From Escherichia phage HF4s, in sequence record MT833387.1: a stretch of 39,390 nucleotides of DNA. One strand, 5' to 3'. The notes below the pieces were generated by a model. The model did no database searches, was not told the DNA's origin, and saw only the letters and a list, made by a program, of their open reading frames with translations. The translations under genes were made by a program, and so were the position numbers. This document shows, piece by piece, positions 16,047-36,496 of this stretch. Within the stretch, counting starts at the first letter, position 1. Each line of letters opens with the position of its first letter.

Positions 16047-16070
16047 GGCGGGGATACCCCCGCCTATTTT
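16047..16070. terminator. bidirectional intrinsic terminator between convergent tailspike and gtrC
   Basis: GGCGGGG-ata-CCCCGCC hairpin flanked by A/T runs on both sides. Confidence 0.6.
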
Positions 16071-17301
16071 ATTTCTGGTATATGTAATCGATACCGTAAT
16101 ATTCTCCAGCAGCTTTAGGGTTATGGAACTTATCAAGGCGATCCCCTAACCTGAAAGTGTTCTTCTCATTATATTTTGGCACTGTAATCACCTTTTCTCC
16201 AGAATGAATGCCTTTCTCTATCATTGCCACTCTGTCCAAGTATTGATTGTTTATATCTATGTAATATGATGACAACATGAAATAATCAACAAGAAATACA
16301 GGCAATAAAGTTAAAAGTAATACTGGCGTATAAAATTTTGAGATTTTCCCCTCAAATGAAGAAATTATCAGCGACAGACTTGCGAGAAGCAAAATAAAAC
16401 CAGTGGTCATAGCCCTTTGCGGATAGTAAGGTGCTGCAAACATAATTACATTCGAGCCGATTGCAAGGGCAAAGAATATAAAGGAGTATTGCATTTTTGT
16501 TTTATCATGCAGCATTGACAATGACGACAAAATAAACATTGATGTCATGATTACGATTATTAGTGCCCCATACTGCACAAGCATTTCAGGCATCCGGTCA
16601 AGCATGTGAAAGTAGATTCTTTCAGTTAAATCTTTTGAATACCATGAACTGAATGAAGGGCCGGAAGCCCTTGCTGCATTCCCAGGTGCCAAAAGCATGG
16701 AGGCAGAACCAACAAGTACAAATGGCAATAGAGCCAAATCTTTTACAGCGAAACGCTTGTTTATGAATGCCAATATACTATGACAAACGATAAATCCCAC
16801 AGAAAGCACCGCCACTGACTCATTCGATGCGCCAGCTAAAAATCCTAACGCAGCTTGTGGTATGGTAAATTTTACACCTTTCATTAAATTATTGCACAAG
16901 AGCATTAGAAGTAATGAAGGTATTAGATAATTAACAAACCCTACAACCCAAAAGGTATTTTGGCCTATGGAAGGGTTAAAAATAAAGAATGAAACCGCTA
17001 TTAAGCAGAATATAGCAGCCCCACCCTGAGCCATTCTCCTAATAACATGCATCAGAAGTATGCTAACTGTCGCGGTAACAGTTGCACTCATCGCATTAGA
17101 TTTAGCAAAAAGGATCATCGGACTAATAAAGTCTACTATGTATCTGCCGCTCCACCCCATATACATTGCAATATGCTTGTCAATGCTAAATCCAAGATTG
17201 CAGAATGCATAATCATCAGATTGCATTGGTGAAAGATAGCTTATTGCCCAAACCATCCCAAAGAAGGCAATATATGCGATAGGGTCTAAATACTTTTTCA
17301 T
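16069..17301 (-). CDS. gtrC: serotype-specific O-antigen glucosyltransferase, GtrC-type polytopic membrane protein
   Basis: 410-aa multi-pass membrane protein immediately downstream of gtrA-gtrB in the same orientation; visibly AT-rich relative to neighbours. Confidence 0.7.
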
Positions 17302-18214
17302 TTTCTTCCCTTCAGCACGTAACGAGGCCTATTCTTAACTTCTACGTAAATCCTGCCAATGTACTCACCGAGCACACCAATTCCTATTAGCTGAATACCG
17401 CCAAGAAAAAGAATAGAAACAAGGAGGGATGGATACCCACGAACCGCATTACCAAAGGCCAGGGTGTCTATAATCATCCACGCGCCGTACATAAACGCAG
17501 CACCGGCAACGAACAGGCCAATATAAGTCCACATGCGCAGTGGGAATGTTGAGAAGCTTGTGATCCCCTCAAGCGCCAGGTTCCATAGCTTCCAGCCGTT
17601 GAATTTGGTGCTTCCAGCCACTCGTTCTGCTCTGGCATACTCCACAACATCGGTACGGCCGCCAACCCAACTCAATACGCCTTTCATGAACAGGTTGCGC
17701 TCAGGCATGAGCTTAATGTTTTCTACCACCTCGCGAGACATTAGCCTGAAATCTCCAACATTTTCCTCGATCTGCGGGTTGCTGATTTTGTTATGCAGCT
17801 TATAGAACCACTCGGCGGTTTTCCTCTTCAGTCTGCCATCAGTTGAGCGGTCAGATCGTTTAGCAAGCACCATGTCAGCACCTGCTAGCCACTTTTCAAT
17901 CAGATGAGGAATGACCTCAATCGGGTCTTGCAGGTCAACATCAATAGGAATAACGGCATCACCTGTTGCATGGTCTAACCCTGCAAACAATGCTGGTTCT
18001 TTACCAAAGTTTCGTGTAAATGACAGCGGAACAACTAGAGGATCTGAAACGGACAGAGCGTTAATGATTGACTCCGTAGCGTCTTTGCTACCATCATTTA
18101 TAAAAACAATTTCCACTTCATATGGCTTCAACTCTTCGAATTCACGTACCGTTTTATAAAAATAGGTATCGCTTCCTCTTCGTTGAAGACAGGAACGACC
18201 AGAGATATCTTCAT
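17298..18214 (-). pseudogene. gtrB: bactoprenol glucosyltransferase GtrB, frameshifted after codon ~19
   Basis: ATG overlapping the gtrA stop encodes the canonical [19 protein letters not shown] and then terminates; the rest of GtrB ([10 protein letters not shown]...) continues in another frame; break at the T5 run (plus-strand A5, 18158-18162). Confidence 0.85.
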
Positions 18215-18573
18215 TTCGCATCCCTAAAGACAATGAACTTTGAATAGACGAAACCGCACACTAGGCTGATGGCGGAGAAGGTGACAAGAGTGACAATTGG
18301 AGGAAGTGCACATTTATCGGCAGCCCATCCAACAGTAGCACTCAGTGTTCCCATGAATCCTACATATAACATGTAGCGCATCGTTGTAGTCGAAGCTTTG
18401 AATGTGAATTTTGCATTCGCGAAGAAGCTAAAGCTCACAGCCACAACGAAACCTGCGAAGTTTGCAAGAGCCTGATTGGTGTGCGCGGCATAGATACATA
18501 CACCAAAAACCACCCAATGTATAAGTGTGTTCAGCACACCAATCGAGGTGTACTTTGCAAATAGCTTTAACAT
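18211..18573 (-). CDS. gtrA: GtrA flippase-like small membrane protein
   Basis: 120-aa hydrophobic protein with stop overlapping the gtrB start (ATGA); typical gtrA size and arrangement. Confidence 0.85.
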
Positions 18574-18706
18574 TTCTTCTATCAGCTAATAATCAAAGGC
18601 ATGAAGTCTATCATCCAAGCATCAATCGATCGATGACTTGCTGTGGTTGATGAGACAAAACTGAGATACACAAGGCTTTGTGACATTCGATAGTGGTTAA
18701 GGTCGA

Positions 18707-19900
18707 TCACTCCACCTTTTCATCAAGCCAGTCCGCCCACCACTGCATCATTTCTCTGCGCTTATCGAGATACTGAGCATGGTTGTAAATCCCACGCACA
18801 GATCCGCCGTTGGCATGTGCCAGTTGCACTTCAATAGCATCAGCAGGCCATTCGTGCTCGTTCATAATCGTGCTGAATTCATGCCTGAATCCGTGACCGC
18901 TTTCCAGACCCTCATAGCCGATTTGTTTGATCACAAGCAGTACCGCGTTCTCGCAGATTGGCTTCTTCTTATCGTTGCGCCCGGCAAAAACAAACTCTGA
19001 TACTGGTTTGGTGATTGAGCTTAGCGTAGTGAGAAGTTCAACCACCTGGTCTGACATAGGAACCACATGAATTTTGCGTCCTTTCATCACACTGGCGTCG
19101 ATGGTGATAATCCTGTTTTCAAAATCGACGTTCTTCCATAGCATGGAACGAAGCTCTTTCGTTCTTAGGGCTGTGTAGCGTAAAACTTTGGTCGCAATGA
19201 GCGATACGATACTTCCTGAAAATGTTGCCAGTGCTTTGTTGAATGCAGGGATCTGGTCTGCAGGAAGAAACGGGAAGTTCTTCTTGCGGTATCCCTTCAT
19301 GGCGTCAGCAAGGTCAGGTGCCGGGTTATATTTAGCCCTACCAGTGACAATAGCGTAACGGAAAACCTCGCCGCATCTTCTGCGGGCTTTGTTGGCTCGC
19401 TCCATTGCACCGCGATCTTCAAATCTGCGGATTACTTCCAACAGTTGCATCGGCTCAATATCCTGAATCTCAAGACCGCCGATGATGGGTAAAATGTCGT
19501 CATCAAACATTTTGGCAAGTTCAGTTGCATAGCCTACTGACCAGACTTGCTTCTTGTGCTCGTACCATTCCTTGTAAATCGCACTAAAGGAATTGTTGTT
19601 AGACGAAGCCTTTTTCGCCTTTACCGGATCGATGCCAACCGAGATGTCTTTCCTCGCAGTCCATGCTTTATCCCTTGCCTCTTGCAAAGTCATAAGCGGA
19701 TATTTTCCGACGGTCAGGATTTTCTCCTTACCGTCAATCTTGTAGCGAAGCTGCCATACCTTTTTCCCGGATACAGGGACATAAAGGTACAGGCCATTAC
19801 CATCGAGAAGGCGGTATGGTTTTTCTTTCGGCCTTGCTGCTTCAATCTGCTTAACGGTGAGCATGGGTAAAAATCCGGTGGGTAAAATTATTTTATCCAC
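18707..19900 (-). CDS. int: tyrosine integrase, P4-type (IntS-like)
   Basis: 397 aa with GTG start; N-terminal arm-binding-type domain and C-terminal catalytic domain with conserved R...H..R...Y region; attP-like sequence immediately upstream. Confidence 0.9.
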   Translation of the reverse strand: MDKIILPTGFLPMLTVKQIEAARPKEKPYRLLDGNGLYLYVPVSGKKVWQLRYKIDGKEKILTVGKYPLMTLQEARDKAWTARKDISVGIDPVKAKKASSNNNSFSAIYKEWYEHKKQVWSVGYATELAKMFDDDILPIIGGLEIQDIEPMQLLEVIRRFEDRGAMERANKARRRCGEVFRYAIVTGRAKYNPAPDLADAMKGYRKKNFPFLPADQIPAFNKALATFSGSIVSLIATKVLRYTALRTKELRSMLWKNVDFENRIITIDASVMKGRKIHVVPMSDQVVELLTTLSSITKPVSEFVFAGRNDKKKPICENAVLLVIKQIGYEGLESGHGFRHEFSTIMNEHEWPADAIEVQLAHANGGSVRGIYNHAQYLDKRREMMQWWADWLDEKVE

Positions 19901-32564: not shown

Positions 32565-32574
32565 GCTAATAACA

Positions 32575-32601
32575 GGGGCTATTTACACAGTAGCCCTTTT
32601 T
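32575..32601 (+). terminator. intrinsic terminator (tR2-like)
   Basis: GGGCTA-9 nt loop-TAGCCC followed by TTTTT, directly after the helicase stop. Confidence 0.65.
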
Positions 32602-32628: not shown

Positions 32629-32841
32629 ATGGACACCGTTAACGGAATGTGTTCAGACGCACCGCGTGCCAAAAAATGTAAGTGCGGAAAATCACCGACA
32701 ATATTCGACATGGAGAACGGGTGCCAAATCTACTGCGCTAACCACGCTGTTGTGGCGGCCGCGAATTATCGCAGTGCGGTAACGGAGTGGAATAACCTGA
32801 AATCTGTTAGAGAGGGAAGTCATGAAAAAACTAACCTTTGA
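32629..32841 (+). CDS. small Cys-rich protein (NinA position)
   Basis: 70-aa ORF with CKCG...C..YC motif; overlaps the ninB start. Confidence 0.45.
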   Translation: MDTVNGMCSDAPRAKKCKCGKSPTIFDMENGCQIYCANHAVVAAANYRSAVTEWNNLKSVREGSHEKTNL

Positions 32842-33262
32842 AATTCGATCCCCAGCACATCAGCAAAACGCTATTCACGCAGTACAGCAAATTCTTCCAG
32901 ACCCAACCAAGCCAATCGTAGTGATCATTCAGGAGCGCAACCGCAGCTTAGACCAGAACAGGAAGCTATGGGCCTGCTTAGGTGACGTCTCTCGTCAGGT
33001 TGAATGGCATGGTCGCTGGCTGGATGCAGAAAGCTGGAAGTGTGTGTTTACCGCAGCATTAAAGCAGCAGGACGTTGTTCCTAACCTTGCCGGGAATGGC
33101 TTTGTGGTAATAGGCCAGTCAACCAGCAGGATGCGTGTAAGCGAATTTGCGGAGCTATTAGAGCTTATACAGGCATTCGGTACAGAGCGTGGCGTTAAGT
33201 GGTCAGACGAAGCTCGACTGGCTCTCGAATGGAAAGCGCGATGGGGAGATCGGGCAGCATGA
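32822..33262 (+). CDS. ninB: NinB recombination protein
   Basis: 146 aa, near-identical to lambda NinB. Confidence 0.92.
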   Translation: MKKLTFEIRSPAHQQNAIHAVQQILPDPTKPIVVIIQERNRSLDQNRKLWACLGDVSRQVEWHGRWLDAESWKCVFTAALKQQDVVPNLAGNGFVVIGQSTSRMRVSEFAELLELIQAFGTERGVKWSDEARLALEWKARWGDRAA

Positions 33263-33786
33263 CTATCAAATCAAATACGCCAGCACACGACAAGGACTGC
33301 TGGCAAACGCCGCTTTGGCTTTTTGATGCACTGGATATTGAGTTTGGATTCTGGCTGGATTCGGCAGCGAGCGACAAAAATGCTCTGTGTGCTCACTGGC
33401 TAACTGAGGCCGACGACGCGCTAAATTCTGAGTGGATAAGCCACGGTGCAATCTGGAATAACCCACCGTACAGCAATATCAGGCCGTGGGTGGAAAAAGC
33501 CGCTGAGCAGTGCATACAACAGCGACAGACGGTAGTTATGCTTGTGCCAGAGGATATGTCAGTCGGATGGTTCAGCAAGGCTCTGGAGAGTGTCGACGAA
33601 GTTCGCATTATCACTGATGGACGGATTAATTTTATCGAACCATCGACAGGGCTGGAGAAGAAGGGAAACAGCAAAGGCTCCATGCTGCTGATTTGGCGAC
33701 CGTTCATCAGTCCTCGACGGATGTTTACTACCGTATCCAAAGCGGCATTGATGGCGATCGGGCAGGGCGTCAGGAGGGCGGCATGA
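33259..33786 (+). CDS. phage DNA N6-adenine methyltransferase (Dam-type)
   Basis: ~175 aa with NPPY catalytic motif (IWNNPPYS); start overlaps the ninB stop. Confidence 0.75.
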
Positions 33787-33959
33787 GACGACAGCGACGA
33801 AGTTTCACCGACATCATCTGCGAAAACTGCAAATACCTTCCAACGAAGCGCTCCAGAAATAAACGCAAGCCAATCCCAAAAGAATCTGACGTAAAAACCT
33901 TCAATTACACGGCTCACCTGTGGGATATCCGGTGGCTAAGACATCGTGCGAGGAAATGA
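33783..33959 (+). CDS. ninE: NinE
   Basis: 58 aa, [23 protein letters not shown]... as in lambda NinE. Confidence 0.85.
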
Positions 33960-34345
33960 CAATGGATTATTCACAGTTAAGTGATTTTGAAATTAACGTG
34001 GCGGTATTCGAAGCCATTCATAACGGATCACCGGATTACAAAGAAGGTGAGAATGGCGATATGGTGTTTGTCTCATTTGAGGGAGACATTGTAAACGGAG
34101 ACGCAGTTGAAGTAGAAGTTGAGCGCGGATCATTTAACCCATGCGTAAACTCAGCAGACGCATGGCCGATTATCACTGAAAACAACATCAGCATAATTTT
34201 AGACAATCCCTCAATGCCGTGCGCCACAGACAACGCAAGGGACTTGTTTGATGATGCAGGACCGAATGTTGGTGTCGCATATGACAATCCACTCCGTGCC
34301 GCCATGATTGTCTTTCTCATGCTGCAGGACGCCAATAATGCTTAG
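33956..34345 (+). CDS. NinX-position protein
   Basis: 129-aa acidic ORF between ninE and ninF. Confidence 0.55.
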
Positions 34346-34514
34346 CCCATCCCAATCCATTCAATACCAGAAAGAAAGCGTCGAGCGAGCTTTAACGTGC
34401 GCTAACTGCGGTAAGAAGCTGCATGTGCTGGAAGTTCACGTGTGTGAGCACTGCTGCGCAGAACTGATGAGCGATCCGAATAGCTCAATGTACGAGGAAG
34501 AATACGATGGCTAA
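34338..34514 (+). CDS. ninF: NinF
   Basis: 58 aa, [25 protein letters not shown]... as in lambda NinF. Confidence 0.85.
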
Positions 34515-35118
34515 ACCAGCGCGAAGACGATGTAAAAACGAAGAATGTCGGGAATGGTTTCACCCTGCATTCGCTAATCAGTGGTGGTGCTCTCCAGAGT
34601 GTGGAACAAAGATAGCACTCGAACGACGAAGCAAAGAACGCGAAAAAGCGGAAAAAGCAGCAGAGAAGAAACGACGACGAGAGGAGCAGAAACAGAAAGA
34701 TAAACTGAAGATTCGAAAACTCGCCTTAAAGCCCCGCAGTTACTGGATTAAACAAGCCCAACAAGCCGTAAACGCCTTCATCAGAGAAAGAGACCGCGAC
34801 TTACCATGTATCTCGTGCGGAACGCTCACGTCTGCTCAGTGGGATGCCGGACATTACCGGACAACTGCTGCGGCACCTCAACTCAGATTTGATGAACGCA
34901 ATATTCACAAGCAATGCGTGGTGTGCAACCAGCATAAAAGCGGAAATCTCGTTCCGTATCGCGTCGAACTGATTAACCGAATCGGGCAGGAAGCAGTAGA
35001 CGAAATCGAATCAAACCATAAACGCCATCGCTGGACTATCGAAGAGTGCAAGGCGATCAAGGCGGAGTATCAGCAGAAACTCAAAGACCTGCGAAATAGC
35101 AGAAGTGAGGCCGCATGA
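34507..35118 (+). CDS. ninG: NinG (Rap) recombination-associated endonuclease
   Basis: 203 aa, lambda NinG-like with Cys clusters. Confidence 0.9.
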
Positions 35119-35321
35119 CGTTCTCAGTAAAAACCATTCCAGACATGCTCGTTGAAGCATACGGAAACCAGACAGAAGTAGCACGCAGACTGAAATGTAG
35201 TCGCGGCACGGTCAGAAAATACGTTGATGATAAAGACGGGAAAATGCACGCCATCGTCAACGACGTTCTTATGGTTCATCGCGGATGGAGTGAAAGAGAT
35301 GCGCTATTACGAAAGAATTGA
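35115..35321 (+). CDS. ninH: NinH
   Basis: 68 aa, lambda NinH-like ([36 protein letters not shown]...). Confidence 0.85.
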
Positions 35322-35970
35322 TGGCAGCAAATACCGAAATATTTGGGTAGTTGGCGATCTGCACGGATGCTACACGAACCTGATGAAAAAACTGGAGACG
35401 ATAGGATTCGACACCAAAAAAGACCTGCTTATCTCGGTTGGCGATTTGGTCGATCGCGGTACAGAGAACGTCGAATGCCTGGAATTAATCACATTCCCCT
35501 GGTTCAGAGCTGTACGTGGAAACCATGAGCAAATGATGATTGATGGCTTATCAGAGCGTGGAAACGTCAATCACTGGCTGCTTAATGGCGGTGGCTGGTT
35601 CTTTAATCTCGATTACGACAAAGAAATTCTGGCTAAAGCTCTTGCCCATAAAGCAGGTGAACTTCCGTTAATCATCGAACTGGTGAGCAAAGGTAAAAAA
35701 TATGTCATCTGCCACGCCGATTATCCTTGTGATAAATACGAGTTTGGAAAGCCAGTTGATCATCAGCAGGTAATCTGGAGCCGCGAACGAATCAGCAACT
35801 CACAAGACGGGATCGTGAAAGAAATCAAAGGCGCGGACACGTTCATCTTTGGTCATACGCCAGCAGTGAAACCACTCAAGTTTTCCAACCAGATGTATAT
35901 CGATACCGGCGCAGTGTTCTGCGGAAACCTCACATTGATTCAGGTACAGGGAGAAGGCGCGTGGGCATAA
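35299..35970 (+). CDS. ninI: Ser/Thr protein phosphatase NinI
   Basis: [24 protein letters not shown]... with GDLVDRG and GNHE metallophosphatase motifs, as in lambda PPase. Confidence 0.9.
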
Positions 35971-36479
35971 GAGAACTAAACCTCACCAAAGAGCAGCACG
36001 AGTGGCTGAATGGCTGGCTTGAACTGTGGGGCGCATGGGTTTATTCAGGTCGTCTGGAAAAGCGCATGAGCAGCGTAATAGCGAAGTTCATGGAGAGCGT
36101 AGAGCCGGGAAGAGTTATGACAAGGCCAATGTGCAATGATGATGATGGAATGTTGATTTCTCAGGTCGTCGATTCCGTCATGTACATCGACAAAAAAGCC
36201 TTTGGCATCCTCCTCAGCTACTACGCTCATGGTTCATCTAAGCGAGCAATTGCATCCTACTATCACGCGACTGCAAAGCCACGCAAGATGTGTGGACGTG
36301 GTGGCGAGGGATGGAGAAAACCTTCACTGGCAACCTGTAGAAACGAAATTGACGACATCCTGAAAGCGTCATTATTTGTTTTGTACCAACCAATGCAAAA
36401 TGCTTTCAAAATGCGTAAACGTGTTGAGAAAGTTAAGCATGTTGCTGTTAAAAACCTTGACATGCAATTAGCCATTTAG
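35961..36479 (+). CDS. Q: late-gene antiterminator Q (QuuD / phi21-Q type)
   Basis: 172 aa immediately upstream of the late leader and lysis cassette; shares LxxWGAW and PxCxDDD motifs with DLP12 QuuD-type Q proteins. Confidence 0.65.
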
Positions 36480-36496
36480 CCATAATTAGAGGGTAA

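Follow-up and report, generated by a model that had tools for sequence, protein, structure and literature searches.

The gene between ninB and ninE in Escherichia phage HF4s very probably encodes an orphan AdoMet-dependent N6-adenine methyltransferase, an allele of M.EcoVT2Dam directed at GATC, which is carried as a cassette of the nin region and would supplement limiting host Dam. HF4s (MT833387.1), a lambdoid podovirus of E. coli/Shigella, is a mosaic resembling Sf6, HK620, and CUS-3, and its sequence of 39,390 nucleotides is in the following termed the window. The open reading frame, hereafter referred to as dam, covers positions 33259-33786 on the + strand and comprises 528 bp coding for 175 aa, with the start codon ATG at 33259-33261 and the stop codon TGA at 33784-33786. 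The sequence-only reading had placed a translationally coupled NPPY methyltransferase of ~175 aa at this position, and comparison with the open reading frame and the Pfam assignments of both neighbors proved its coordinates, length, motif, and ninB/ninE context to be correct throughout. The start codon shares the tetranucleotide ATGA (33259-33262) with the ninB stop codon TGA (33260-33262), which bears out the proposed junction, and the stop codon is interlocked in the same manner with the ninE ATG (33783-33785) as ATGA (33783-33786). By direct reading of the sequence, a Shine-Dalgarno-like GGGGAGA was located on the + strand at 33243-33249, within the 3' end of ninB and 9 nt 5' of the dam ATG, while the ninE ATG is preceded by a Shine-Dalgarno AGGAGG of the GGAG type (33771-33776, +). 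Translation of dam is probably coupled to that of ninB via the ATGA overlap.

Profile searches assigned the encoded protein to the T1/HP1/VT2 Dam family over its full length and above the curated cut-offs. PF05869 (DNA N-6-adenine-methyltransferase, Dam) was matched with 218 bits (cut-off 28.1; 8e-65; profile positions 1-167 of 169), and the equivalog TIGR01712 (phage N-6-adenine-methyltransferase) with 264.2 bits against 97.05 (3e-79; 1-165 of 165), confirming a phage N6-adenine methyltransferase between ninB and ninE. These scores lie so far over the cut-offs that dam is not a chance open reading frame. In addition, phrog_111 "DNA methyltransferase" matched at 9e-88. The catalytic motif IV of N6-adenine methyltransferases, (D/N)PP(Y/F/W), is intact and reads NPPY at residues 68-71 (codons 33460-33471, +). 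The conserved F-x-L-D-x-A-A-S block is represented by F29-G-F-W-L-D-S-A-A-S38 (codons 33343-33372, +) on the predicted strand beta-1 and is presumed to be the AdoMet-binding motif I. In an alignment of 35 homologues with identities down to 60%, 47 positions proved to be invariant; besides the catalytic region N68-P69-P70-Y71, these include T17-P18, F29/F31/L33/D34/A36, D113-E114, G121-R122, and K139-G140. No restriction enzyme family was found among the neighboring products NinB, NinE, NinX, NinF, NinG (the Rap junction endonuclease), NinH, and NinI; dam is an orphan methyltransferase without an adjoining cognate restriction endonuclease.

A Pfam scan at E <= 0.01 returned PF05869 only, PF02086 (MethyltransfD12, the family of E. 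coli and T4 Dam) not being matched, and a phmmer search of the PDB, which holds both E. coli and T4 Dam, gave nothing better than E 0.18, this match being to unrelated proteins. The designation "Dam-type" consequently holds for the activity, GATC being very likely by way of M.EcoVT2Dam, but not for the family, as host Dam is not a relative. There is also no PDB entry related by sequence to the dam protein, leaving the family without a solved representative. Its fold was evaluated by an AlphaFold model built on the 35-sequence alignment (mean pLDDT 76, pTM 0.77), which displays an alpha/beta core with the LDxAAS block on the strand 31-36 and a strand 64-68 running into NPPY. Foldseek matched it best within the PDB to PCIF1/CAPAM (E 1.2e-4, probability 1.0, TM 0.56), with HsdM of EcoR124I, CamA, METTL3/METTL14, METTL4, and KsgA/DIMT1 among the further matches. 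The best of these are N6-adenine methyltransferases, at modest similarity, and model and matches together display the class I (Rossmann-like) AdoMet-dependent methyltransferase fold. The model is thereby consistent with a minimal, AdoMet-dependent adenine-N6 methyltransferase of class I that appears to lack a separate target-recognition domain. In enzymes of the (D/N)PP(Y/F) class, the flipped target adenine is held in the NPPY pocket and receives the methyl group from AdoMet. In the HF4s enzyme, the target adenine of GATC would be flipped into a pocket made up of NPPY (residues 68-71) and be methylated from AdoMet, held in the Rossmann-like core including the F-x-L-D-x-A-A-S strand.

Comparison with individual phage enzymes allowed a closer assignment. 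The dam protein has a 100% identical counterpart in phage Nil2 and shares 174 of 175 residues with the product of VT2-Sakai orf32 (M.EcoVT2Dam), the conservative exchange I60V being the sole difference; toward the DNA methyltransferase of phage T1, identity amounts to 33% over 158 residues. The VT2-Sa enzyme M.EcoVT2Dam "is known to target 5'-GATC-3'" according to a methylome paper (PMC6602927), and it has been grouped with the Dam enzymes of P1, T-even phages, and HP1 (PMC7556043); for the GATC specificity, we rely on these two papers, both of which refer to Radlinska & Bujnicki 2001. Because of the near-identity to M.EcoVT2Dam (174/175), we infer that the HF4s allele very likely methylates the adenine N6 in GATC.

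Extension of the analysis toward the surrounding genes showed dam to be part of the rightward early region, with the order cro-cII-O-like-DnaB-like-hairpin-Cys-rich ORF-ninB-dam-ninE-ninX-ninF-G-H-I-Q. Therein, cro, cII, and the O-like initiator were assigned by PHROGs and the DnaB-like helicase by a separate profile scan; on the leftward side, an N-like antiterminator (phrog_271) and a cI repressor were identified by PHROGs. A terminator-like hairpin at 32574-32598 (+), with a stem of 10 pairs followed by a T run (TTTATTGG), was picked up by a consensus scan alone. It separates the DnaB-like helicase gene from the nin genes, at the position of a tR2-type terminator, and its function is presumed accordingly. 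A small Cys-rich ORF of 69-70 aa (32632-32841, +) is situated downstream of this hairpin and extends 20 nt past the ninB start; a match was obtained to phrog_6308 (unknown function, 1e-53) but to no Pfam family, and for its counterpart in HK544 the annotation notes similarity to HK97 gp60. The genes flanking dam, all on the + strand, are ninB (32822-33262; Orf recombination mediator, 146 aa, PF05772 at 7e-54), ninE (33783-33959; 58 aa, PF05322 at 4e-43), and a ninX-like gene (33956-34345; PF10765 at 4e-14, phrog_444 at 7e-41). The latter offers two in-frame ATGs, at 33956 (in ATGA overlap with the ninE stop) or at 33962, so that ninB, dam, ninE, and ninX may be chained by three consecutive ATGA stop/start overlaps. 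The ninF-ninG-ninH-ninI block (34372-35963, +) follows, identified by its match to lambda and by the Pfam families NinF, NinG, and NinH, and the consensus scan predicted a strong late-promoter-like site after the Q-like gene at the end of the operon (36457-36486).

By analogy with lambda, this arrangement points to dam as a delayed-early gene of a repressor-controlled pR operon. Preceded by the terminator-like hairpin in this operon, dam should therefore be off in a stable lysogen. After infection or induction, the N-like antiterminator would allow read-through of the hairpin and thereby expression of dam. For the copy in phage Phi24B, the protein of which is 100% identical to that of VT2-Sakai, a significant change of the transcript level on prophage induction is on record (PMC3342100).

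Alignment with lambda revealed the borders of the cassette. The ninB segment (window 32810-33262 vs lambda 40632-41084) shows 96.2% nucleotide identity, the ninE segment (window 33790-33956 vs lambda 42097-42263) 95.8%, and the ninF-ninI segment (window 34372-35963 vs lambda 42297-43888) 97.1%. The dam segment (window 33263-33789), the ninX-like segment (window 33957-34371), and the Q region have no lambda match. Homology to lambda thus ends exactly at the ninB stop and picks up again at the ninE start, the place of dam being occupied in lambda by ninC and ninD (41081-42123, about 1 kb). The view of a gene inserted into an otherwise lambda-identical nin region has to be modified in this respect: the position between ninB and ninE stands, but dam replaces ninC and ninD, the flanks are 95.8-97.1% identical, the ninX-like gene is extra, and Q differs. 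A simple insertion of the cassette was rejected, since the 528 bp of dam take the place of two genes. Such a replacement of ninC and ninD at exact gene boundaries is typical lambdoid mosaicism.

As to the purpose of such an enzyme, the question reaches beyond HF4s: why do many temperate phages of Dam+ hosts carry a GATC methyltransferase of their own? A topping-up of GATC methylation is its most likely role, because host Dam is limiting. Lambda, being without dam, was found to be methylated at about 46% of its GATC sites on wild-type E. coli and at 77% with extra Dam (bioRxiv 10.1101/2025.08.29.673000); the methylation of no more than about half of the sites on wild-type hosts renders this role plausible. 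The phage enzyme would supplement limiting host Dam, leading to a fuller GATC methylation of replicating and packaged phage DNA. As a result, the phage would be independent of the host Dam level and shielded from MboI/DpnII-type restriction as well as from MutH nicking at un- or hemimethylated GATC. The mismatch-repair version of this benefit is weakened, because the mutation rate of lambda was unchanged by more GATC methylation (bioRxiv 10.1101/2025.08.29.673000). STEC strains with and without extra phage copies both exhibited 99.9% GATC methylation (PMC6602927), and an effect is thus not apparent in a Dam+ lysogen. What phage Dam enzymes do has been described as "still not well understood", and anti-restriction and regulatory roles are speculation, also in the same source (PMC7556043).

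A possible imprint of dam on the GATC content was also evaluated. The 39,390 bp of HF4s contain 86 GATC sites vs 166 +/- 12 expected from dinucleotide-preserving shuffles (O/E 0.52), dam-less lambda contains 116 vs 196 +/- 12 (O/E 0.59), and phage T1, carrying a Dam of the same family, contains 235 vs 214 +/- 14 (O/E 1.10) and shows no depletion. A relaxed GATC avoidance in the presence of dam was not seen between HF4s and lambda (0.52 vs 0.59). GATC is as depleted with dam as in dam-less lambda, so the gene has not relaxed selection against this site. This speaks against a strong effect of dam, with the reservation that an influence on the depletion could be masked by exchange of the cassette between mosaic genomes. 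In HF4s, CTAG (O/E 0.35) and GGCC (O/E 0.53) are also low.

Among the alternatives to a supplementation of host Dam, a role in the lysogen survives best, although we consider it unlikely. According to this explanation, a low level of phage Dam would alter GATC-dependent switches of host or prophage, e.g., by locking a Dam/OxyR phase switch of the gtr operon or by stabilizing lysogeny. HF4s indeed carries gtrA (18211-18573), gtrB (17298-18233), and a GtrC-type gene with DUF6056 (16069-17301), together spanning 16069-18573 on the - strand and adjoining int. The gtr leader (18574-18713, -) is homologous to the regulatory region of P22, and P22-type gtr operons undergo phase variation via Dam and OxyR, which is abolished by Dam over-expression (PMC2909390). 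The P22 switch is characterized by two pairs of GATC sites, overlapped by three OxyR half-sites, in a stretch of about 115 bp preceding the gtr transcription start. For a gtr operon that has a single GATC and lacks an OxyR site, absence of phase variation was predicted (PMC2909390). In the alignment with P22, the HF4s leader has kept two of the four sites, GATC1 (18705) and GATC4 (18628); GATC2 reads ATCGAA and GATC3 lies in a 6-bp gap. These two are also the only GATC sites of the 133-bp int-gtrA spacer, a number below that of the P22-type switch. With 2/4 sites, the leader was rejected as a P22-type Dam/OxyR switch, and its sequence suggests that the HF4s gtr operon may be expressed without phase variation. 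The sequence-only reading had connected dam to the GATC sites near this leader; the sites do exist, but the connection is weak given the degenerate leader and the position of dam in the repressed pR operon.

Further support for a role in the lysogen comes from Phi24B, the Dam of which was detected by an antiserum raised against lysogen cultures (PMC3342100). In a passage of this paper, its authors consider that Phi24B Dam may supplement host Dam, needed for stable 933W lysogeny. However, the signal from lysogen cultures could come from spontaneously induced cells, the gene lies in a repressor-controlled operon behind the terminator-like hairpin, and the hosts are Dam+, with the above-mentioned 99.9% GATC methylation irrespective of extra phage copies. 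Considering the degenerate leader together with the repressed operon, an effect of dam on gtr in stable lysogens is therefore unlikely. Two further proposals are yet more improbable: the phage Dam might act as a counter-defence against a host system sensing under-methylated GATC in replicating phage DNA, or might reset the two remaining gtr-leader GATC sites after infection or induction and thereby lock newly formed lysogens in the ON or OFF state of O-antigen modification. Neither of them has specific support.

It is very unlikely that the enzyme methylates a non-GATC motif or acts with relaxed specificity as a broad anti-restriction protection. The protein is very small (175 aa) and its model exhibits no obvious separate target-recognition domain, which would be compatible with a loose target choice, and phage adenine methyltransferases of relaxed specificity are documented (PMC7556043). 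The latter belong to other families, however, and HF4s dam differs from M.EcoVT2Dam, reported to be GATC-specific, only by the conservative I60V. Moreover, in REBASE-based methylome papers, copies of 99% identity were assigned to GATC, and none of the m6A motifs seen beyond it was attributable to them (PMC6602927).

Least of all, with a probability close to nil, an antisense ORF of 174 aa across dam and ninE (33393-33917, -) could be the real coding gene and the dam frame incidental: phrog_37455 ("unknown function") matches it at 4e-119 over 1-174 of 174 and long antisense open frames are also present in the Pectobacterium and Edwardsiella homologues, but it has no Pfam match, the comparison with VT2-Sakai yields six amino acid changes from nine nucleotide changes in the antisense frame vs a single one from seven in the dam frame (six of seven at third codon positions), and in the Yersinia homologue the antisense frame is split into pieces of 55 and 86 aa. 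Based on the missing Pfam match, the substitution pattern, and the broken Yersinia frame, it was rejected as a gene, and from these sequence comparisons we conclude that it is a shadow ORF, phrog_37455 probably being a family built from mis-called or mis-annotated genes in deposited genomes. As far as can be read from the sequence, dam is intact, with overwhelming family support for its + frame. A 392-aa antisense open frame over dam and rusA at the Edwardsiella locus (L009) is presumably a composition artefact.

The supplementing GATC methyltransferase proposed for HF4s is widely distributed. At >=95% nucleotide identity, the same gene was found in 243 phage records, including lambda-like isolates, HK544, mEp phages, Sf6, Sf101, and many Stx1/Stx2 phages, as well as in 1,566 of 5,426 complete E. 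coli genomes (about 29%), with up to five copies per genome. These E. coli copies bear the PGAP label "phage N-6-adenine-methyltransferase" and are nearly always situated between NinB and NinE, and one 90% cluster of dam homologues alone comprises 2,325 member sequences. Homologues of 60-86% identity are present in prophages of Pectobacterium, Edwardsiella, Serratia, Yersinia, Providencia, Photorhabdus, and others; those of 68-80% identity include loci of Pectobacterium (L007), Edwardsiella (L009), and Yersinia (L010/L011). The distant homologues are always located in early regions with varying neighbors, such as Dam-NinF-NinG-Q, Dam-RusA, or a YqaJ exonuclease block. As these differing early-region contexts show, dam moves as a single-gene cassette. 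In the last of them, it terminates a YqaJ-exonuclease/DUF1317 block situated at the edge of a prophage. In some database proteins, confined to rare clusters (P0001, P0005, P0011, P0013, P0023, P0037, and P0087), a NinE, NinB, RusA, CII, or Q domain is joined to the Dam domain; these fusions probably reflect frameshifts, recombinant junctions, or gene-calling artefacts where stop and start codons overlap.

The gene, its family, its nin position, and the likely GATC specificity are documented in literature and annotation pipelines from about 2000 on (HK97 gp62, VT2-Sakai orf32, M.EcoVT2Dam, and TIGR01712). HF4s dam is the same gene as HK97 gp62 and as dam of Phi24B, 933W-type phages, Nil2, HK544, Sf6, and Sf101. 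HK544 displays the identical order ninB-dam-ninE-ninX-ninF-G-H-I-Q, and its annotation refers to HK97 gp62. M.EcoVT2Dam (VT2-Sakai orf32) agrees in its length of 528 bp, in 174/175 aa, and in its location between the homologues nin146 (ninB) and nin60 (ninE). Besides I60V, the difference resides in the carrier, the HF4s allele being harbored by an Sf6/HK620-like podovirus mosaic with a gtr operon and not by an Stx phage. The nin region of lambda has ninB, ninE, and ninF-ninI in the same order at 96-97% identity and likewise features overlapping stop/start junctions, e.g., ninB/ninC at 41081-41084, whereas HF4s has dam for ninC and ninD, an added ninX-like gene, and other Q and replication genes.

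Within the PF05869/TIGR01712 family, the Dam of T1 and that of Haemophilus phage HP1 are the founding members, and both are listed together as phage Dam-like enzymes (PMC7556043). T1 Dam shares the WxTP, LDAAAS, NPPY, and GR-x-F/KGS blocks with HF4s dam but is larger (237 aa), with N-terminal and internal extensions, and belongs to a virulent phage whose genome is not GATC-depleted. The alpha-class Dam enzymes of E. coli and T4 (PF02086) have the presumed product G-m6A-TC and the (D/N)PP(Y/F) catalytic chemistry in common with HF4s dam, which in contrast is about 100 aa shorter and is modeled without a separate target-recognition domain. HF4s dam is hence a functional analogue of E. coli and T4 Dam and not a close homologue.
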